Shown here in pieces: positions 11,924 to 52,097 of a stretch of DNA of 64,000 bases; position 1 is the first letter of the stretch; the number at the start of each line of letters is the position of its first letter. Source of the stretch: Halorutilales archaeon Cl-col2-1 (GTDB taxonomy: Archaea; Halobacteriota; Halobacteria; Halobacteriales; Afararchaeaceae); contig CP169074.1 in NCBI GenBank assembly GCA_041891055.1, positions 1,440,001-1,504,000 of the forward strand, given 5' to 3'. The notes below the pieces were generated by a model that was not told the DNA's origin, ran no database searches, and was given only the letters and a program-made list of their open reading frames with translations. A program made the position numbers and the translations under genes.

Positions 11924-12904
11924 TCAGTATCCCTCGGCGGACTCTATCTTACCCCACATCGTGGTATAGAGTATTCCGAAGTAGACGAAGATGAGGGGCA
12001 TGAGTATAGCCGAGCCTATAGTCATCAGGTTGAGCGGAAGCGTCGAGACTATAGCCTCGTCGTATCTGAGCCCGGTCGCTGGGTCGACGAGAGGGAACAT
12101 CACCGCGGCGACGTAGGCGACGAGTCCGAAGGCGAGTCCCGCCGCCGACGCGAATGCGACGTAGTTCCTCTTTCTGGATACCGAGTAGACGTAGATGACC
12201 GTCAGACCGAGACTGAGTGCGACGAGTCCAAGGGGTAAGGGGGAGACTAGCGACCCCCTGATTCCGGGGTAGAAGACGTATATGTATCCGAGACCCGCGA
12301 CGAGGAGACCGAGGTACGCCACCGCCGAGATGACGCCGTACTTCGAGACGTCGATGTCGGTCTTGACGCTGAGGAAAGCCGCGCCGTCGAGAACCGTGAG
12401 TGCGACGAGGACGGCTCCGACGACTACTGCGGGGAGGTTGACTATACTCGTCGCGCCGAGGAGCCAGTTAGAGGTGAAGGCTCCGAGGAAGAAGGGCGAC
12501 GCCGTGCTTCCGAATATGAAGGCACGTCCCCACCACTTCTGCCACGTCTCGTCGTGTCTCTGTTCGTAGAACTCGGGTGCGAGCCCTCGTATTATGAGAG
12601 ATCCGAGAATGGCGAACATAAGGAGGTAGTTCCGGCTGAAGAGGTTGGCGTACACCTCGGGGAAAGCAGCGAAGAGGGCTCCTCCGAAGACGACTAACCA
12701 GACCTCGTTTCCGTCCCAGAAGGGTCCTATTGCGGCGAGTATCTTCTCCTGTGCCTCGTGATCCTCGAAGGCGAATATGATCCCCGCTCCGAAGTCGAAT
12801 CCGTCGAGGAAGACGAACATCCCGAGTATGAAGAAGATCAGACCGAACCAGATCTCCTGGAGCGGGAGTCCGAGTATGTGGTGTGTGCTTAGTGTGAGTA
12901 TCAT
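11924..12904 (-). CDS. cydB: Cytochrome bd oxidase subunit II
   Basis: LDGFDFGAG, IGPFWDGNEVWLV..GGALFAAFP. Confidence 0.95.
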   Translation of the reverse strand: MILTLSTHHILGLPLQEIWFGLIFFILGMFVFLDGFDFGAGIIFAFEDHEAQEKILAAIGPFWDGNEVWLVVFGGALFAAFPEVYANLFSRNYLLMFAILGSLIIRGLAPEFYEQRHDETWQKWWGRAFIFGSTASPFFLGAFTSNWLLGATSIVNLPAVVVGAVLVALTVLDGAAFLSVKTDIDVSKYGVISAVAYLGLLVAGLGYIYVFYPGIRGSLVSPLPLGLVALSLGLTVIYVYSVSRKRNYVAFASAAGLAFGLVAYVAAVMFPLVDPATGLRYDEAIVSTLPLNLMTIGSAILMPLIFVYFGILYTTMWGKIESAEGY

Positions 12905-12913
12905 TGTTGTCGT

Positions 12914-14353
12914 TTAGTCGTCACTCGGGACGCCGTAGGGCGTGTCTCTGTCTGTGTCCTTGTCGGTGTCGGTGCCTGCGTCTGTTCCTCTCCTGCCCTC
13001 CTCATCAACTCCGTCAACCTCGGGAGGACCCTCACGTATAATCCTGTATACGACGTACGAGTAGACGCCGAGTATCGCTGCGTATCCGAGGACGAAGCCC
13101 GTGAGTGTTAGAACTGCATCGCCTGAAGTAAGCGTGGGTGAGACTGCATCCTGTGTCTTCATGACTCCCTGTATGACCCACGGCTGTCTGCCGACCTCTG
13201 TGACGACCCAGCCTGTCTCTACTGCGACAATACCGAGAGGTGCCGAGGCTACCATCGCCTTGTGGAGTAGGTCGTCCTCGAAGAGTTCGTCCTTCCACCA
13301 TCTGTAGGCTCCCCAGAATGCGAGGACGACGAACCAGGTTCCTATCGCTACCATGACCCTGAACGCCCAGAAGACTATCGCTACGGGCGGAGCCTGGGTG
13401 TCGAATGACTCCAGACCCCGTATCTCGGCAGTCGGATCGCCCCCGCTCGCTAGCCACGAGGCTCCTCCGGGTATTCCTATTCCGAATATCTCCTTAGCGC
13501 GCGGGTTGGTTATCTGATCGAGACTCGTCGGAACAGCAAAGAGGTACTCGGGGACGTACGACTCGGTCTCCCAGACAGCCTCCATCGCCGCGAACTTCTG
13601 TGGCTGTGTCTCGACTACGTGGCGTCCGTAGGCGTCTCCGTGGATGACCTGGAACGGAGCGACGAGAACCATGACTAGGAGGGCTATCTTGAGAGTCTTC
13701 CTCCAGAACCGCGAGTCACGGTTAGTCCAGACGTGGTAGGCGGCGACGCCTGCCATGAAGACGGCGACCGAGAGGACGGCGGCACTCTGCATATGCGTGT
13801 ACATCCACGGGAACCTCGGGTTGGCGTATGCGGCTATCGGGTCGACGAGTGTGATTATGGGCTGTCCGTCCTCCATGACTGTCTCGAATCCCCTCGGCGT
13901 CTGCATCCATGAGTTGGCGATGAGTATCCAGAGCGCGGAGAGCCACGACCCGAGAGCGACCATCACTCCCGCGAAGAAATGGAGCTTGTCGGAGACTTTC
14001 TCCTTGCCGAAGAGGAAGATTCCGAGGAATGTGGCTTCGAGCATGAAAGCCATCATCCCCTCGACCGCGAGGGGTCCTCCGAATAGCTCTCCGACCGACT
14101 CCGAGAAGGCGGCGAAGTTGGTTCCGAACTCGAACTCGAGGACTATTCCTGTAACTGTGCCGACGACGAAGCTGACTGCAAATATCTTCGTCCAGAAGTC
14201 GCGGAGCTGTTCGTAGACTCCGTCGTCGGATCTCATGCTCTTCCACGTGAAGTAGACGAGGAACGGACCGAGTCCCATCGACATCACGGGGAAGATTATG
14301 TGTACGACCGTCGTCAGCGCGAACTGAAGACGGCTTGCGAATACTGGGTCCAT
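12914..14353 (-). CDS. cydA: Cytochrome bd oxidase subunit I
   Basis: SRLQFA...HIIFP, FEFGTN, ANSWMQTP, QPQKFAAME, GWVVTEVGRQPW. Confidence 0.95.
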   Translation of the reverse strand: MDPVFASRLQFALTTVVHIIFPVMSMGLGPFLVYFTWKSMRSDDGVYEQLRDFWTKIFAVSFVVGTVTGIVLEFEFGTNFAAFSESVGELFGGPLAVEGMMAFMLEATFLGIFLFGKEKVSDKLHFFAGVMVALGSWLSALWILIANSWMQTPRGFETVMEDGQPIITLVDPIAAYANPRFPWMYTHMQSAAVLSVAVFMAGVAAYHVWTNRDSRFWRKTLKIALLVMVLVAPFQVIHGDAYGRHVVETQPQKFAAMEAVWETESYVPEYLFAVPTSLDQITNPRAKEIFGIGIPGGASWLASGGDPTAEIRGLESFDTQAPPVAIVFWAFRVMVAIGTWFVVLAFWGAYRWWKDELFEDDLLHKAMVASAPLGIVAVETGWVVTEVGRQPWVIQGVMKTQDAVSPTLTSGDAVLTLTGFVLGYAAILGVYSYVVYRIIREGPPEVDGVDEEGRRGTDAGTDTDKDTDRDTPYGVPSDD

Positions 14354-14392
14354 ATTGGTTACCTCCTACTCTTGTAGTAGCTTCCGTAGACG

Positions 14393-14461
14393 CTTAACCC
14401 CTTCTTAAGAGCCAAGATTTAGTATGTGGATTGGTCTCAGCATGAAAGGAGCAATATTTGG
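14393..14461 (-). promoter_or_regulatory. cydAB promoter: TATA/BRE with two CAA-N3-TT(G/A) palindromes 39 bp apart
   Basis: GTTAAG TATA 14398-93; CCAAGATTTAG 14412-22; GCAATATTTGG 14451-61; SD AGGAGGT before the ATG; 30/37 ungapped identity to 50995-51031. Confidence 0.65.
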
Positions 14462-15586
14462 CTAGTTCTCGACTGGTACGTCGACGAGGTTACCCCACTC
14501 GGTCCAAGAGCCGTCGTAGTTGGCGACCATGCCGTAGCCGAGTAGCTCTGAGAGGACGAACCAGACGAGAGACGACCTTTCGCCTATGCTACAGTAGACG
14601 ATGACGTCCCTGTCAGGGGTGATACCGCGATCCTCGAATAACGACTTGAGTTCGTCGCGGCTCTTGAACCTGCCGTCGTCGTCTATCGTCTTCGACCAGT
14701 GGAAAGCCTCGGCACTCGGAATATGTCCACCGACCTCGACCTGAGGAACCTCTCCCGGCGGCGCGAGGCTCTCACCTCTGAACTCCGACGGACTCCTGAC
14801 GTCGAGTATCTTGGTGTCCTGTCTGAGAGCCGCCTTTACGTCGTCCCTGTACGCACGTATCTGTTCGAGTGTCTGTCCGGCGTCGTAGTCGCGCTGGGTG
14901 AAGTCGGGGGTATCACACGTCTGGTCGTAACATCTCTCGTCCCAGTAGTTCTTGCCGCCGTTCATGAGGTATACGTCGTCGTGTCCGTAGTAGGTCATCA
15001 TCCAGTAGGCGTACGCAGCGAACCAGTTCCACTGGTTACCGTAGAGAACAACAGTCGAGTCCTCGGTGATCCCCTTCTCACCCATTATCTCCTCGTACGA
15101 CTTCTTGTCGGGGACTCCACGGCAGTTCTTCTGGGCTATGTCCTCCTCCCACGTCATCCTCGCCGCACCTGGTATGTGCCAGTCGTCGTAGGTCTCCCTC
15201 TCGGAGTCGACCTCGACGAGGCGCATAGACGTGTCATCTGTGGCGAACTCCTCGAGACGATCCTTCACCCAGTCAGCCTCTACGAGGACGTCGTTGGCGT
15301 ACTCCGACTCCTTTCCGAGAGCCTCATCGGAGAGCTCGTAACACGTCTGTCTCGCGTCGTGGACAGCGGGACTCGTATCGACGAAGCCCTCCTCTTCGAG
15401 GCGTTTAAGACCGTACCTAGTCGTACGTGTCGAGAGAAGTGTCTCCTCGGATATCTTCTTCTGAGTCATCCGTCCACATCTCTCAAGTGTCTTGTATATG
15501 AACTTAGAACTAGGTGGGAGTTCACGGAGTCTTTCTGTGATGGAGGGAGTCTCGGAGTCGGTGTTGGGACTGGAGTCTGATGACAT
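14462..15586 (-). CDS. Winged-HTH / tandem-rhodanese sulfurtransferase fusion
   Basis: N-terminal LPPSSKFIYKTL..MTQKKISEETLLSTRTTRYGLKRL..DARQ HTH; then HIPGA, GHIPSA, YCSIGERSS active-site loop, YDGSWTEWG. Confidence 0.85.
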   Translation of the reverse strand: MSSDSSPNTDSETPSITERLRELPPSSKFIYKTLERCGRMTQKKISEETLLSTRTTRYGLKRLEEEGFVDTSPAVHDARQTCYELSDEALGKESEYANDVLVEADWVKDRLEEFATDDTSMRLVEVDSERETYDDWHIPGAARMTWEEDIAQKNCRGVPDKKSYEEIMGEKGITEDSTVVLYGNQWNWFAAYAYWMMTYYGHDDVYLMNGGKNYWDERCYDQTCDTPDFTQRDYDAGQTLEQIRAYRDDVKAALRQDTKILDVRSPSEFRGESLAPPGEVPQVEVGGHIPSAEAFHWSKTIDDDGRFKSRDELKSLFEDRGITPDRDVIVYCSIGERSSLVWFVLSELLGYGMVANYDGSWTEWGNLVDVPVEN

Positions 15587-15656
15587 GGCTAGATATACGG
15601 GCTGAGTTATAATACTCTATGGGTTCGTACATCTAGAGAAAGAACTATGAAACCCG

Positions 15657-15726
15657 GCAATAAATGTTGGAACTTCGGCGTTTCTCAGAAGTACTAAACA
15701 TATTTTGGGCTTAGAGAACGTATAAG
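15657..15726 (+). promoter_or_regulatory. Promoter of rhodanese-MBL/TSUP operon with degenerate CAA-N3-TTG sites
   Basis: GCAATAAATGT 15657-67, ACATATTTTGG 15698-708, TATAAG 15721-26; geometry similar to the cydA promoter. Confidence 0.45.
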
Positions 15727-15754
15727 CCCGAACGTGTAATAGATACACACGACT

Positions 15755-16942
15755 ATGGCAGATAAGATAACCGTAGAGGAACTCAGAGACAAGCAGGACA
15801 GTGACGACGACTACGTTCTCGTAGACACGAGGAACCAGGAGGACTACGAGAACTGGCACATCGGCGGCGCAGTCAACGTCGAGTACTCCCACTCCGACGA
15901 CGAACTCAGAGGTGACTGGGAAGGGCTCGTCGAAGACCTCGGAATAGAGACGGACGACGAGATAGTCACGATCTGTGCGAAGGGCAAGTCGGCGAAGTCG
16001 TTCGCCGAGTATCTCGAAGGAGAAGGCTATACAGACGTAAAGAGCGTCGAGGGCGGCATGGAGTCGTGGAGCATGGTCTACGACATAGTCCCCGTAGCCA
16101 CACAGAGTGACGAGATAGACATCATACAGCTTCAGAGGAGATCGAAGGGATGTCTCGGATACATAGTCGGTGACAAGGCGACCGGGGAGGCTGCGGCGAT
16201 AGACGTCACACGTGCGACCGAGACATTCAAGAACGCCGCCGCCGATTACGGCTACGACATCGCTTACGTCTTAGACACACACATACACGCAGACCATATC
16301 TCGGGAGGAAGAAGGTTCGCTGAGGAGCTCGGTGTTCCGTACTACCTCGGAGAGAGAGCGAGAACGAGAGACCCCGACTACGACTTCGACGGCTTAGACC
16401 AGAACGAGGTACTCGAAGTCGGAGAGAACGTAGACATCAAGGCGATCCCGACGCCGGGACACACGACGGGAATGACGTCTTATCTCATCAACGACGAGGC
16501 TCTGACGACGGGAGACACAGTCTTCGTCGAGTCGATAGGACGCACGGAGCTCCAGTTCGCGGGAGACGAGGCAAAGGGAGGTGCTGAGATGCAGTACGAC
16601 ACCCTCCACGACAAGATTCTGTCGGAGCCCGACACAGTCAAGATACTCCCGGGACATTTCTCGGTCACAGACGACGGCGAGTTCATCGACGTCACACCCG
16701 GTACACCGATGATGACGACTGTCGGTTACCTCAGACAGAACAACAGAGCGCTCCAGATGGACGAAGACGAGTTCGTCGATTACATGTTCGACAACATACC
16801 CTCGAAGCCCCCCAACTACGAGAAGGTCATCGCCACCAACAGCGGCGACTACGAGCCTGAGGACAAAGCCGAGGAAGACGAACTCGAACTAGGTCCCAAC
16901 CGCTGTGCCGCGACCGAGGAAAGTATGGTCGCTGACGACTGA
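15755..16942 (+). CDS. Rhodanese plus metallo-beta-lactamase (persulfide dioxygenase-like) protein
   Basis: Rhodanese ICAKGKS loop; DTHIHADHISG, TPGHT, TGDTVF..GR, LPGH; C-terminal GPNRCA. Confidence 0.85.
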   Translation: MADKITVEELRDKQDSDDDYVLVDTRNQEDYENWHIGGAVNVEYSHSDDELRGDWEGLVEDLGIETDDEIVTICAKGKSAKSFAEYLEGEGYTDVKSVEGGMESWSMVYDIVPVATQSDEIDIIQLQRRSKGCLGYIVGDKATGEAAAIDVTRATETFKNAAADYGYDIAYVLDTHIHADHISGGRRFAEELGVPYYLGERARTRDPDYDFDGLDQNEVLEVGENVDIKAIPTPGHTTGMTSYLINDEALTTGDTVFVESIGRTELQFAGDEAKGGAEMQYDTLHDKILSEPDTVKILPGHFSVTDDGEFIDVTPGTPMMTTVGYLRQNNRALQMDEDEFVDYMFDNIPSKPPNYEKVIATNSGDYEPEDKAEEDELELGPNRCAATEESMVADD

Positions 16943-17017: not shown

Positions 17018-17167
17018 ATGCTCGGACTAGAGTCATTATCGGCGAACGTGAAAGCCCTCGCCATAATCGGGATACTACTGACGGAGGCTATCGTGCTGAA
17101 CGCCTTCTACGGATTTCTCGACCAGGCGTTTGCTCCAACCATAATGAAGTACATAAAGGGTGAATGA
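17018..17167 (+). CDS. Small single-TM protein, 49 aa, preceding TSUP (haloarchaeal)
   Basis: Manual translation MLGLESLSANVKALAIIGILLTEAIVLNAFYGFLDQAFAPTIMKYIKGE; below ORF-track cutoff. Confidence 0.65.
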   Translation: MLGLESLSANVKALAIIGILLTEAIVLNAFYGFLDQAFAPTIMKYIKGE

Positions 17168-17168
17168 G

Positions 17169-18170
17169 ATGGTATTAGGAGTAGGCACCTCAACGATAGC
17201 GATCTTCATTACGTTCGGGGTACTGATAGGAGTCCTCTTCGGATTCTTCGGTATGGGAGGCAGTCTCCTCATACTCCCTGCAATACTCGTAGCGGGATAT
17301 CCCGCAGACGTAGCCGCAGGTAACAGCCTCGCGTTCGTCTTCGGAACCGCAGTGATCTCGGTTCTCAAACACCGTGACCACGGACAGATAGACTACAAAC
17401 TCGGTGCCGTCTTCCTCTTAGGCGGCACGCTCTTAGGAGAGACAGTAGGACACGAGATACTCAACATGCTGAAGGCTCGCGGTCTCTCAAACGTCGTCGT
17501 GAGCCTCATACTCGTGACGATACTCGTCGTGATGGGAGTCATCATACTCAGGGACGCGCGTTCGAGCAGTGAGTCGGGAGATGGCGCCGAGTCGGGCGCG
17601 GGAATACAGGAGACTGTCGAGTCGTTCGACGTCCCACCGAAGATAGATATAAAAGGAGGCGTCGAGGTCTCGGTCTGGGTCACCCTCTCTATCGCTTTCT
17701 TCATAGGACTCCTCGCGGGTCTGATAGGCGTGGGCGGAGGCTTCCTCGTGATGCCCGCGATGACATACATACTCGGAGCCCCCGCGGCGGTCGCGGTCGG
17801 AACCGACCTCTTCCAGATCGTGGGTCTCGGAGCCTACGGAACCTTCCTCAACGTCTCGAAGATCAACCTCGGCATAGTGATGCCTCTCTTAGCCGGAAGT
17901 GCTCTCGGAGCACGTATCGGTGCGAGTGCAACGTCAGTCACAGACGGAGAGGAAATAAAGGAGTACTTCGCCGTGATGCTCCTGATATCGGCGGTCTCTA
18001 CCGCTAGTAAGCTCGCGGCTAACCAGTACGGCATCGAGATACTCAATACCGTGAGTATAGTCTTCGTCGTAGGTGCGGCGTTCCTCGTTACGGGCGTCAT
18101 ACTCTACACGAGCATACAGAACATAAGAGAGGAGAGTAGTTCGAGCACTGCTGCGGTCGCCGCGGACTAG
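17169..18170 (+). CDS. TSUP (TauE/SafE sulfite exporter) family transporter
   Basis: FGFFGMGG and GLIGVGGGF repeats, AVAVGTDLFQI. Confidence 0.88.
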   Translation: MVLGVGTSTIAIFITFGVLIGVLFGFFGMGGSLLILPAILVAGYPADVAAGNSLAFVFGTAVISVLKHRDHGQIDYKLGAVFLLGGTLLGETVGHEILNMLKARGLSNVVVSLILVTILVVMGVIILRDARSSSESGDGAESGAGIQETVESFDVPPKIDIKGGVEVSVWVTLSIAFFIGLLAGLIGVGGGFLVMPAMTYILGAPAAVAVGTDLFQIVGLGAYGTFLNVSKINLGIVMPLLAGSALGARIGASATSVTDGEEIKEYFAVMLLISAVSTASKLAANQYGIEILNTVSIVFVVGAAFLVTGVILYTSIQNIREESSSSTAAVAAD

Positions 18171-19228
18171 AACTCGAACTCGGAGTAGTCGGCGACGTAG
18201 CGTCTGTCTTTCTGTTCGTTTTCTCGTTCTCGCGTCTTCTCTTCGACGCTGTCGACGGAGTAAAACTGTATCTGTCTCTCGTGTTTGGTCATGACCTCGA
18301 AGCCGTAGTTCTCGGAGATGTACTTCAGGCTCCTGTCTGTCTCGTCCACGAAGTCGGTGTGTCTACCGAGACGTCTCCCAACGACTTCGTCTGACTTTTC
18401 CTCGACTCGGTCGAGTCTCCGCTCAAAGCTCTCGACGAGGTCTCTGCGTATCTCGTAGCCGACGGAGTTACGTCCCGCTACGACCGCCGCAAGCGACGTG
18501 GTTCCTGTTCCCCAGAACGGATCGAGAACCGTGTCGCTGTAGACCGAGTACATATTTATGAGACGGTAGGGGATCTCGAACGGAAACGCAGCCGACGTGT
18601 CACGGAGAGTCTCAGATCCGTCGTTGAGGTCGAGTGACTGCGACTCACCTCTGACGTCAGTCCAGACGTCCGAGAACCAGTCGTTGCGTTCCTCCCAGAA
18701 GTAGGCACTCTCGTAACGTCTCTCGGAGTGGGGCTCGAACTCCCTCTTCGACTTGCGGAAGACGAGTATATGTTCGTGTTCGAGTGTGACGTAGGCGTTC
18801 GTCGGAAGCATCCCCGACCCCATGAACTTGGCGGCGGAGTTGGTGGGCTTTCTCCACAGAACCGTGGGGAGTGGCTCGTACCCCATCTCCGAGAACTTAC
18901 GTGTTATACGTGAGTGGTTGGGGTATCTCTCGAAGGAGCCGCCGATCTTACGTGTAGCGTCGCCGACGTTTACACAGACTACACCGCCCTCCGAGACTAC
19001 GTCGTCGACCGACTCCCAGACCTCGTCGAGCTCTCGGTGCATGAGACTGAAAGCAGTCCGGTCATCGCCGTCGTCGAGCGCGTCACGTATCTCAGGGTTT
19101 AGATCCGAGAAGACGTCGTCCCACATCTCTATCATTGGATACGGTGGCGATGTAACCACGAGGTTGACATCTCGATCGGATCTCATACGTCTAGAGTCGC
19201 CGAAGAAGACGTCGTGTTGTGTCCTCAT
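18167..19228 (-). CDS. zim: Orphan N4-cytosine DNA methyltransferase, Zim-like (CTAG)
   Basis: VTSPPYPMIEMWD motif IV before DPFWGTGTT motif I (beta class); resembles haloarchaeal CTAG methylase; likely start MRTQHDV at 19228. Confidence 0.75.
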   Translation of the reverse strand: MRTQHDVFFGDSRRMRSDRDVNLVVTSPPYPMIEMWDDVFSDLNPEIRDALDDGDDRTAFSLMHRELDEVWESVDDVVSEGGVVCVNVGDATRKIGGSFERYPNHSRITRKFSEMGYEPLPTVLWRKPTNSAAKFMGSGMLPTNAYVTLEHEHILVFRKSKREFEPHSERRYESAYFWEERNDWFSDVWTDVRGESQSLDLNDGSETLRDTSAAFPFEIPYRLINMYSVYSDTVLDPFWGTGTTSLAAVVAGRNSVGYEIRRDLVESFERRLDRVEEKSDEVVGRRLGRHTDFVDETDRSLKYISENYGFEVMTKHERQIQFYSVDSVEEKTRERENEQKDRRYVADYSEFEF

Positions 19229-19356
19229 GTCTCGGCTACTCGACATCCAATCACGAGTTCGAGTATCGGCTCTGTCTCCGGGAGACACGCCACGCATAGA
19301 AACTTCGGTTTTTCAAGTGCGTAGTTCATACTTAGTTAAGAAGAGGTAGTCCGAGG

Positions 19357-50744: not shown

Positions 50745-50969
50745 TTAGTTGGGGCGTCCGTCTGGAGTCTCCGACTGCGACCTCGACGCCGACGATCTGC
50801 TTATTCCTATGTAGAGGAGACCGCTCACGACGAAGAGGAGGAGACCGCCTCCCATCGCGGGGTCGCCCTCGTAGAAGCTCCAGATCGATCCGACGGCACC
50901 CATCAGTGTGACGACGACTCCCAAGGTCAGCAGGCTGAGGTTCGTGTTTCTGGTTTCTACCTTTGACAT
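50745..50969 (-). CDS. Small two-TM membrane protein
   Basis: 74 aa, two hydrophobic helices; TATA 26 nt upstream (probably leaderless). Confidence 0.6.
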   Translation of the reverse strand: MSKVETRNTNLSLLTLGVVVTLMGAVGSIWSFYEGDPAMGGGLLLFVVSGLLYIGISRSSASRSQSETPDGRPN

Positions 50970-50994
50970 ACTACTAGTGTAGTACTGTAGTAAG

Positions 50995-51062
50995 TTAACG
51001 GCTTCTTATGAGCCAAGTATTGGTATGTTGAAGCTTCCCGGGGAGAAACGCACAATAATTGT
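50995..51062 (-). promoter_or_regulatory. Promoter near-identical to the cydA promoter, with paired CAA-N3-TTG palindromes
   Basis: CCAAGTATTGG 51013-23 and ACAATAATTGT 51052-62 (39 bp apart), 13 nt from the TATA. Confidence 0.65.
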
Positions 51063-51068
51063 GAGGTT

Positions 51069-52097
51069 TCAGACGCCGATATCTCCGACGGCTTCGCGTA
51101 TGCTCATTCCCTCAGCGACGACGTCACGTCTGTAATGCATATAGAGGGCACCGATGGGTGTCTGGAGTATGTAAGCGAGGGCTATCGGAAGTACCGCCTC
51201 CGAGGGAAGGAAGTCGGACGCAGCCACGATTCCGACGGCTATAGACAGGTTGCGCATGCTGGTGGCGTAGACGAAGGCGACCGACTGTTCGGTTTCGAGG
51301 AGAGCTCTTCCGACGACTGAACCCACTCCGAGTATGACCGCGTAGAATATAACGAGAGGGACGACAGTGGCTCCCGAGGCGACGGGGTCTGCGAGTATGC
51401 TCTGTGACCGCATCGACATAGCTATGAAGACTATCAGCATGACACCCAGAGAGCTCAGACCGCCGAGGCGCGGCTTTATCGTCTTGAAGCCGTCGGAGCC
51501 GTACCTTCGGAGAAGGAGATGACGTATGGCGGTTCCGAGAACCATCGGAACCACGACGACGACTGCGAGCTGACGGTAGAGTGACGCGGGGTCGAAGTCG
51601 ACTGCGCCCTGTACGAGGAACGAGAGGTATGTCGGGAGTACCAGAACCGCGGCTATCAGGTTGACTGCGACTGCGACGAGTGAGGCTTCGAGGTCGCCTC
51701 CGGCTAATCCCGTCCACGCCGCGGTCATTCCCGAAGTGGGTATGAGGGCGATGAAGTAGAGTCCGACAGCGTAGGCGGGAGATCCCCCGAAGAAGGTCTG
51801 AGAGAGACCGACCGCGAGAAGCGGTACGAAGGCGAAGTTGAACACGAGGCTCAGAACGACGGGCTTGGCGTGTCCACGTATATTCACTAGTTCTTCGAGG
51901 TCTATGTTGACCATCATGGGGACGATCATCACGAATATCACGGGAAGAACCGCCGACTTGAGAACGGATCTGAGACCCGATCCCATGAACTGTCCCGCCA
52001 CGAGACCCGCTACGAGGGAGGTCACGATTACGTATATGAGGTTCTGCTTGAGTCCCTCTAATAAGTCTCCGACGGCTCCGAGTAGTCTCGTCCTCAT
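51069..52097 (-). CDS. ACR3/bile acid:sodium symporter family transporter
   Basis: MIVPMM, NF...P, PTSGMT.AWT.LAGG, MRNLSIA; about 10 TM. Confidence 0.8.
   Translation of the reverse strand: MRTRLLGAVGDLLEGLKQNLIYVIVTSLVAGLVAGQFMGSGLRSVLKSAVLPVIFVMIVPMMVNIDLEELVNIRGHAKPVVLSLVFNFAFVPLLAVGLSQTFFGGSPAYAVGLYFIALIPTSGMTAAWTGLAGGDLEASLVAVAVNLIAAVLVLPTYLSFLVQGAVDFDPASLYRQLAVVVVVPMVLGTAIRHLLLRRYGSDGFKTIKPRLGGLSSLGVMLIVFIAMSMRSQSILADPVASGATVVPLVIFYAVILGVGSVVGRALLETEQSVAFVYATSMRNLSIAVGIVAASDFLPSEAVLPIALAYILQTPIGALYMHYRRDVVAEGMSIREAVGDIGV

Follow-up and report, generated by a model that had tools for sequence, protein, structure and literature searches.

The window analyzed here is a 64,000-nt stretch of the Halorutilales archaeon Cl-col2-1 genome (GenBank assembly GCA_041891055.1, contig CP169074.1, forward-strand positions 1,440,001 to 1,504,000). 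It contains a gene whose product, P0001, joins a MarR-like winged helix-turn-helix (HTH) domain to a tandem rhodanese. The cytochrome bd genes cydA and cydB lie directly downstream, on the same strand; upstream is a divergent gene for a rhodanese-type persulfide dioxygenase (PDO)-like protein, and then one for a TauE-family exporter (Table 1). The fusion is a real, conserved, narrowly distributed haloarchaeal protein of a sulfide-oxidation module, and probably has a regulatory role in it.

Structure and distribution of the fusion protein

The open reading frame (ORF) of P0001, on the minus strand, begins with ATG and runs for 374 codons with zero internal stops. Pfam finds Rhodanese in two stretches (E 2.2e-31; 108.7 bits, cut-off 22.2) and, over residues 30-69, HTH_24 (30.8 bits, above the cut-off of 21.9). 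The complete set of HTH-type matches also includes MarR (20.5, cut-off 24.6) and MarR_2 (22.1, cut-off 27), both sub-threshold, as well as HTH_27 and HTH_36. NCBIfam gives sub-threshold matches only, to 3-mercaptopyruvate/thiosulfate sulfurtransferase models and, faintly, to the archaeal redox regulator MsvR. The active-site loop of the catalytic rhodanese domain reads C332-S-I-G-E-R-S, with the Cys opening a six-residue loop. A preliminary description of this DNA had proposed a winged HTH followed by a complete tandem rhodanese with its catalytic Cys, which translation, Pfam, and structure prediction confirm; the motifs it quoted are all found in P0001 (LPPSSKFIYKTL, RTTRYGL, HDARQTCY, and, at residues 331-338, YCSIGERS). 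It had also counted two HTH cysteines. Both are present (C37 and C82), but only C82 is conserved, C37 being found in just one of 51 fused sequences.

An AlphaFold2 model of P0001, built on a 65-row alignment, has a predicted local distance difference test score (pLDDT) of 88.1 and a predicted template modeling score (pTM) of 0.77. Helices at residues 16-21, 25-37, 42-49, and 53-65 and strands at 69-73 and 81-85 are followed by the two rhodanese domains; the linker between the two parts varies in length and sequence (alignments A1 and A4), and pLDDT is 79-88 over residues 71-100. A Foldseek search with the whole model matches solely the tandem rhodaneses 1uar, 3hzu, 3aay, and 3hwi, at 41-44% identity (template modeling scores: TMt 0.84-0.93, TMq <=0.68); these matches span the rhodanese part only, since the aligned lengths are ~275-287 columns. 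The winged helix modeled alone (pLDDT 91.8) gives a list of matches almost all of which are MarR-family or MarR-like, several of them with operator DNA (TMq 0.69-0.82). It is without the N- and C-terminal dimerization helices of MarR, its helical part ending at residue 65 and its wing at residue 85. A homodimer prediction with two copies of P0001 (alignment A4) gave a score of 0.18 (mark 0.42), which weighs on neither side.

The fusion family is real but small. Among 301 Halobacteria genomes, the sample used for all genome counts, the fused form occurs in 21, from five families (fused winged helix at E<=6e-23), and among the matches listed for P0001, 24 rows (21 genomes) start at query residue <=19. 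Some 50 cluster representatives, each 352-399 aa long, align over 94-99% of P0001 at 47-61% identity; named sources include Haladaptatus, Natrialba, Natrinema, Natronorubrum, Halorientalis, Haloferax profundi, Halorussus, Halolamina, Halobellus, and others. Metagenome contigs from two runs (X2 and X3) of one study carry the entire gene in one piece, at ~93% identity. Of the best 150 matches among 1.84 billion cluster representatives, three align from the N-terminus (P0002, P0006, and P0123), and the ESM Atlas has one archaeal cluster, of 53 members, auto-named “Sulfurtransferase.” The 2.06-Mb source genome itself has two fusion copies, 51% identical to one another.

An artefact in this strain, whether from stop-codon loss, a frameshift, or a mis-assembly joining two neighboring genes, is an extremely improbable explanation for this protein. 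The ~50 representatives, the presence in 21 genomes, and the two copies in the source genome dispose of the strain-specific stop loss that had been considered at the outset: the same architecture and length recur across many genera, independent metagenome contigs span the gene, and the in-frame linker is modeled with confidence. No support for an artefact was found. The sole related oddity is in the orthologue from a sister genome of the same genus (G025; L006:237-1370, 96% identical), which has a TGA at the position of the invariant W297, before the catalytic Cys is reached; its truncated form is the database entry P0002 (299 aa).

The two parts are usually separate proteins in haloarchaea, as had been supposed, and the 301 genomes bear this out. 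A tandem rhodanese match at E<=1e-30 is found in 293 of them; the unfused protein is ~288 aa long with a C-R-I-G-E-R-S loop, and most matches listed start at query residue ~82-94. The winged helix alone is matched at E<=1e-8 in all 301, typically with 3-8 matches each; outside fused genes, the matches listed are ~47-56% identical and mostly in open frames of ~90-150 aa. Small free-standing winged-helix proteins of this type (~90-100 aa, LPPSAKLVYKVLE...ARQxLY) have 44-50% identity to the fusion domain (five members, alignment A6), with P10, P11, S12, K14, R40, T41, R43, Y44, D63, R65, and Y69 as common invariants. The fusion departs from them in the attached rhodanese and in having Cys, not Leu, in wing strand beta-3. 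In the source genome, no free-standing winged-helix paralogue was matched by the winged-helix query and no unfused tandem rhodanese by P0001 at E<=1e-30, the two fused copies being the only matches in each case. A quick maximum-likelihood tree built from the rhodanese part separates fused from unfused rows on one branch (SH-like approximate likelihood ratio test [SH-aLRT] 100), which is compatible with a single fusion event.

Some other arrangements were seen in passing. Three of five fetched free-standing winged-helix genes adjoin an ABCE1-like gene. A candidate split form in G265, in which the gene for a 56%-identical free-standing winged helix adjoins that of a flavoprotein, was rejected: the neighbor is NDH-2-like, not a sulfide:quinone reductase (SQR). 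A winged-helix match at G116:C65:127621-130222 (51% identity) falls within an open frame of 498 aa that immediately precedes a second SQR copy, and may be another, more divergent fused variant. Tandem rhodaneses also occur with other partners: P0134 (765 aa), with PAS, HisKA, and HATPase_c, is a rhodanese-histidine kinase, and P0187 (553 aa) has NIR_SIR sulfite/nitrite reductase domains. The latter is of the type mentioned for Halobacteria in a survey of archaeal fusions, whose main text mentions only the NirA-rhodanese fusion for this class (PMC11237513).

Association with sulfide-oxidation genes

The PDO-like protein encoded beside the fusion in the window has sequence matches in the PDB to 3r2u (E 1.1e-24), 3tp9, 5ve3 (BpPRF), and 4chl (ETHE1). 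The second fusion copy, at locus L005, is likewise divergent from a rhodanese-PDO gene, and is accompanied by genes for SQR and then a DUF1641 protein; the best solved relative of this SQR is human SQOR (E 3e-61, PDB sequence search).

For comparison, 20 fused loci were fetched from other genomes, along with nine unfused loci. SQR is adjacent in 18 of the 20 fused loci, a divergent rhodanese-PDO is present in 12, and cydA is downstream in two (L006 and L020). The nine unfused loci have no match to SQR or to a PDO-type metallo-beta-lactamase, and hold a second rhodanese, 30% identical. The order fusion, SQR, DUF1641 is found in all six named loci; in Natribaculum breve, cydA, TauE, PDO, fusion, SQR, and DUF1641 genes form one cluster; the single cluster at L056 includes TauE and cydA. 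An orthologous type II SQR (61-67% identity outside the window's genus) is found in exactly the 21 fusion genomes and in none of the other 280; in one of the 21 (G012), fusion and SQR are ~108 kb apart. This distribution shows that the two are kept or lost together, although kinship and co-transfer inflate the pattern.

Membership of the fusion protein in a sulfide-oxidation pathway is very probable. The module would consist of a type II SQR, a rhodanese-PDO, TauE, and here cytochrome bd, with the fusion as its tandem-rhodanese sulfurtransferase. Cytochrome bd is reported to support sulfide-resistant respiration in E. coli (PMC4815019), and rhodaneses to be regular members of bacterial sqr-pdo clusters, of SQR-fused, PDO-fused, or dissociated type; neither “regulator” nor “HTH” appears in the main text of the latter report (PMC9163753). 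The examined flanks of the fused modules hold no other conserved regulator gene, nor was TusA seen in the fused modules examined.

A second SQR clade (54-57% identity) is found beside cydAB in genomes without the fusion. One such locus (L043; G251:C38:31831-42985) has cydAB, an HVO_2928_N/HTH_10 regulator, an unfused CRIGERS rhodanese, TusA, SQR of this clade, and DUF1641, and is a “split” design using another transcription-factor family. L041, L042, and L044 are further loci of this second, fusion-less haloarchaeal sulfide module. In both SQR clades, the SQR gene is followed by one for a protein of ~366 aa that has internal repeats and matches DUF1641 at its C-terminus (L005:9765-10865, L022, L041-L043, and L056-L061).

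Table 1. Positions of the fusion gene, its parts, and associated features in the window.
Feature	Position	Strand	Basis
cydB, cytochrome bd quinol oxidase	11924..12904	-	Pfam Cyt_bd_oxida_II, E 2e-68
cydA, cytochrome bd quinol oxidase	12914..14353	-	Pfam Cyt_bd_oxida_I, E 9.7e-150
Spacer from fusion stop to cydA, with palindrome-like CAATATTTG at 14452-14460	14354..14461	-	~45 nt upstream of TTAAGAAG box
Whole gene P0001, winged helix + tandem rhodanese fusion, 374 aa	14462..15586	-	ORF, Pfam, AlphaFold2
C-terminal catalytic rhodanese domain, residues ~245-370	14477..14854	-	Pfam best stretch 248-365
Catalytic Cys332 codon	14591..14593	-	Sequence, translation, invariance
N-terminal non-catalytic rhodanese domain, residues ~99-220	14927..15292	-	Pfam first stretch; aligns to 1uar, 3hzu, 3aay
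Acidic/Gly-rich variable linker, residues ~87-98	15293..15328	-	Alignments A1, A4
MarR-like winged helix-turn-helix, residues ~16-86	15329..15541	-	Secondary structure, Foldseek, conservation
Cys82 codon, wing strand beta-3 (RQTCY)	15341..15343	-	Cys in 49/51 fused members
Divergent spacer common to fusion and rhodanese-PDO, 168 nt	15587..15754	.	Sequence; arrangement in 12/20 fused loci
Rhodanese + metallo-beta-lactamase gene, PDO-like, CstB/BpPRF/ETHE1 relatives	15755..16942	+	Pfam Rhodanese + Lactamase_B
TauE/SafE-family exporter, putative sulfite/sulfonate efflux	17160..18170	+	Pfam TauE, E 2.9e-39
Second copy of cydA-type promoter module, 76% identical, with CAATAATTG and CAAGTATTG	50956..51080	-	Upstream of 74-aa membrane ORF 50745..50969

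The end of the TauE gene is abutted by an N6/N4 DNA methylase gene (18167..19297, minus strand; Pfam N6_N4_Mtase, E 1.8e-35).

Candidate regulatory sites

The fusion gene had been described as sharing promoter DNA with neighbors bearing CAA-N3-TTG sites. One such site does lie between the fusion stop codon and cydA, but the 168-nt spacer toward the PDO gene has no exact one. In the window, CAAWWWTTG is observed twice (14452 and 51053), with 0.07 expected, the site at 51053 being in a second copy of the same ~115-nt promoter module. By nhmmer, these are the only two copies of this module in the genome (14340-14470 and 50956-51080 of the window), and there is no copy of the extended cydA promoter module at the SQR locus. 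In both copies, CAA-W3-TTG precedes a TTAAGAAG/ATAAGAAG box by ~45 nt, and there is a TACTAC..GTAGTA-like repeat near the start codon. The 74-aa membrane ORF downstream of the second copy comes just after an SBF/ACR3-like transporter gene (51069..52097); that this copy is part of the same regulon is conjectural.

In the sister genome, the cydA site is retained as CAATTATTG; it is absent from the cydA upstream regions of three genomes without the fusion. Two of the fusion-less loci (L041 and L042) have a different inverted repeat there instead, the pair TTGGCGCA(A/G)GACAA / TTGTCCTGTGCCAA.

The short motif has 19 matches in the whole 2.06-Mb genome, and was rejected as a regulon marker; the matches that adjoin other genes are next to those for a thiamine pyrophosphate (TPP) enzyme, TnpB, Mrr, FdtA, Lrp, and HNH proteins. 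Because it adjoins such unrelated genes, and has no exact copy at the paralogous SQR locus, the link between the CAA-N3-TTG sites, which do exist, and the fusion protein is conjectural.

Alignments of the regions upstream of the fusion genes have, in one large group, a strongly conserved block resembling a B recognition element (BRE) and TATA box (GAAAGAnCTGTATAG), ~30-40 nt before the start codon. Upstream of this block are A/T-centered CAAT-N0/1-ATTG palindromes and a TTAC-N12-GTAA repeat. Exact CAAT-N0/1-ATTG occurs in eight of 20 non-redundant upstream regions (N1 in five, N0 in four), and TTAC-N12-GTAA in five of the 20; in 40 Markov shuffles, no palindrome was present in more than three sequences. 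This enrichment is suggestive, and the palindromes can be proposed as candidate operators. Their position before the TATA-like boxes would fit activation as well as repression.

In Natrialbales-type loci (L009:2584-3500 and L011:350-1485), the ~1 kb upstream of the fused gene has no convincing ORF. Within it is a conserved series of CAATTATTG, TTAC-N12-GTAA, and GCAATATTCG; Rfam gave no match on four loci, including this stretch.

Possible functions of the fusion

The reading we favor, with a probability of about 0.5, is that the fusion is a bifunctional “trigger enzyme”: a sulfurtransferase of the sulfide module that would also report its sulfane-sulfur load to the module's promoters. It is suggested by a gene set that equals the sulfide-oxidation pathway of bacteria and mitochondria (SQR, PDO, a rhodanese, and a sulfite exporter), but with regulator and sulfurtransferase in one polypeptide. 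Taken alone, the proposal that the protein regulates transcription, through predicted DNA binding by its winged helix, seems moderately probable. For residues conserved in the fused clade, 51 fused and 14 unfused sequences (65 rows) were compared.

In the winged helix, R54, T55, R57, and Y58 of the recognition helix (residues 53-65) and D77 and R79 of the wing (D-x-R) are invariant in all 51 fused members, and free-standing paralogues have equivalents of all six. Such conservation would not be expected had DNA binding been lost, as in one alternative, by which the fusion is a sulfurtransferase only, and the winged helix has become either a sulfur acceptor or carrier working through Cys82 (the role of TusA elsewhere) or a docking module for SQR or PDO. 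The electrostatics also speak for retained DNA binding, the winged helix having a mean net charge close to zero (-1.3; -0.019 per residue) within a protein whose rhodanese part is highly acidic (-30; -0.109 per residue), as does the lack of any other conserved regulator in the examined flanks of the fused modules. The carrier proposal would account for the separate TusA, unfused rhodanese, and HTH_10 regulator of the L043 module, set against fused modules in which no TusA was seen, and a carrier domain would require just such a clade-specific Cys; P0123, however, keeps the fusion without it. With no other tandem rhodanese at E<=1e-30 in the source genome, the fusion probably has to act as an enzyme, which suits this alternative as well. 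On balance we consider loss of DNA binding unlikely.

In the rhodanese part, Cys332, G335, R337, and S338 are invariant in all 65 rows. The position after the catalytic Cys is R in all 14 unfused sequences, and H, N, S, or G in all 51 fused ones (S in P0001), so that the fusion differs from the housekeeping haloarchaeal tandem rhodanese in lacking the loop Arg of the C-R-I-G-E-R-S type. A yeast rhodanese is reported to use its loop Arg for thiosulfate decomposition (PMC8533005), and the loss of this Arg in all 51 fused sequences is one argument for a second alternative, that the protein is purely a sensor-regulator carrying little metabolic flux, whose conformation would shift when Cys332 alone is persulfidated or when thiosulfate or sulfite binds, with no relay to Cys82. 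A fused member without a wing Cys (P0123) would be compatible with this, and the fusion of a tandem rhodanese to PAS, HisKA, and HATPase_c in P0134 indicates that such rhodaneses recur as inputs to signaling modules. Against it, conservation of the catalytic residues, and of the remainder of the fold, is complete, the source genome has no unfused tandem rhodanese for the metabolic job, and the near-universal wing Cys of the main clade would be unexplained. A sensor without appreciable catalytic flux thus strikes us as rather improbable, and enzymatic activity of the fusion can be predicted from its sequence.

The wing Cys is at position 82 in 49 of the 51 fused members. The other two have Cys80 (RCSFY, with Phe82), two residues earlier and therefore on the same face of the wing strand. 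In the trigger-enzyme reading, a MarR-like winged helix joined to the N-terminus of the sulfurtransferase would let the enzyme itself report sulfane sulfur to promoters. SQR would oxidize sulfide to persulfide or polysulfide, from which sulfane sulfur would be loaded onto Cys332. Once acceptors are saturated, Cys82 of the wing might capture the persulfide, forming a di- or polysulfide bridge or leaving the wing persulfidated, and DNA binding would be altered. Transcription would then shift for the fusion/SQR operon, the divergent PDO-TauE genes, and, in the source genome, cydAB. A specific switch running from Cys332 to Cys82 is the more doubtful part of this scheme, and is put forward tentatively.

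Several observations weigh against the trigger-enzyme reading. P0123, a 45%-identical fused member, has Leu at the wing-Cys position and a different recognition helix, so the fusion can persist without the wing Cys. Free-standing paralogues likewise have Leu there (five of five aligned), and Cys82 could thus be a tolerated hydrophobic replacement and not a sensor thiol. The TGA at W297 in the sister genome is either a sequencing error, or the mark of a pseudogene or sign that copy 1 is dispensable. As for the candidate operators, the palindrome enrichment is not phylogenetically independent, the carriers being largely one related group; there is no exact palindrome at the paralogous locus L005 or at most divergent-PDO loci; and the other 17 genome-wide matches of the short motif are inside long ORFs or beside unrelated genes. 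A 9-bp palindrome is also short for a dimeric winged helix, and the P0001 domain is without the MarR dimerization helices.

In bacteria, the sensing of persulfide and sulfide is well understood, with CstR, SqrR/BigR, FisR, and others known. The design of P0001 differs from these, as the preliminary description had proposed: by Pfam it belongs to none of their families, and its fold is MarR-like. CstR is a separate CsoR-family repressor, a four-helix bundle with two sensing cysteines. P0001 has no Pfam match to a CsoR-type domain (four-helix bundle, DUF156) and its model is a winged helix, covalently joined to the sulfurtransferase, with the catalytic Cys as one of the candidate sensing pair. 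The set of genes is nonetheless a gene-for-gene match to the cst operon of Staphylococcus aureus (tauE, cstA, cstB, and sqr), both having a sulfurtransferase, a PDO-rhodanese, a type II-like SQR, TauE, and a dedicated adjacent regulator. The S. aureus genes are reported to be induced by sulfide and in a cstR deletion strain (PMC5480029).

The likeness to SqrR/BigR is in the association of a winged-helix regulator with sulfurtransferase/dioxygenase functions. SqrR/BigR is a free-standing ArsR dimer that senses via two cysteines, both within the regulator. The fusion instead has one conserved Cys in its DNA-binding domain and carries a whole enzyme; it has no match at E<=0.01 to the ArsR/SmtB-type Pfam families HTH_5 and HTH_20, although a few of its homologues carry a precomputed PF12840 label. 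FisR is a sigma-54 activator. In the bigR-blh case, the regulator is beside a sulfurtransferase/dioxygenase gene reported to be needed for respiration under sulfide (PMC5823870).

MarR thiol-switch regulators such as OhrR, AbfR, MexR, and SscR have the same fold as the fusion's domain; its Foldseek matches include AbfR, MexR, and MarR, and there are weak sequence matches to ZitR and OhrR. MarR proteins are, however, ~140-150 aa long, while the fusion's domain has ~70 residues, no dimerization helices, and scores below the Pfam MarR and MarR_2 cut-offs. Trigger enzymes such as PutA, BirA, and NadR are enzymes with a fused DNA-binding domain controlling their own pathway. The fusion would resemble them in that one polypeptide would both catalyze a pathway step and bind DNA, but its signal would be a covalent persulfide intermediate, not a bound substrate or cofactor. 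Our literature search found no rhodanese or other sulfurtransferase among described trigger enzymes.

In Archaea, the only sulfur-responsive switch that we found cited is SurR of the Thermococcales, a winged-helix protein in which oxidation of CXXC cysteines by sulfur is reported to switch DNA binding (PMC7278568). SurR uses a CXXC disulfide, responds to elemental sulfur, serves hydrogen and sulfur metabolism, and has no enzyme domain. The fusion, in contrast, sits with sulfide-oxidation genes, and there is no CXXC in residues 1-98 of P0001. A search of the full-text literature found no description of a winged helix-rhodanese fusion, the supplements of PMC9163753 and PMC11237513 being outside its scope, and no regulator of sulfide oxidation described for haloarchaea. 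Databases already hold the fusion proteins, under the names “rhodanese-like domain-containing protein” or “MarR family transcriptional regulator,” so the sequence family is not new; the functional reading is.

In its strongest form, the proposal is of a sulfane-sulfur sensor that loads its own signal, from rhodanese Cys to wing Cys, which would be the first persulfide sensor described in Archaea and of a new design. We think this somewhat unlikely, but if true, specificity for sulfane sulfur would come from enzyme chemistry, not from thiol reactivity, and one switch would couple detoxification by SQR and PDO to expression of the sulfide-insensitive cytochrome bd. It would also give an archaeal entry point to reactive-sulfur signaling, an example of an enzyme's covalent intermediate as a regulatory signal, and a compact, self-contained sulfane-sulfur-responsive module, possibly of use as a high-salt biosensor. 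The fusion, type II SQR, and DUF1641 define a haloarchaeal module for sulfide detoxification that is mobile and, in some genomes, also includes PDO, TauE, and cytochrome bd; it marks haloarchaea equipped for life beside sulfidic sediments.

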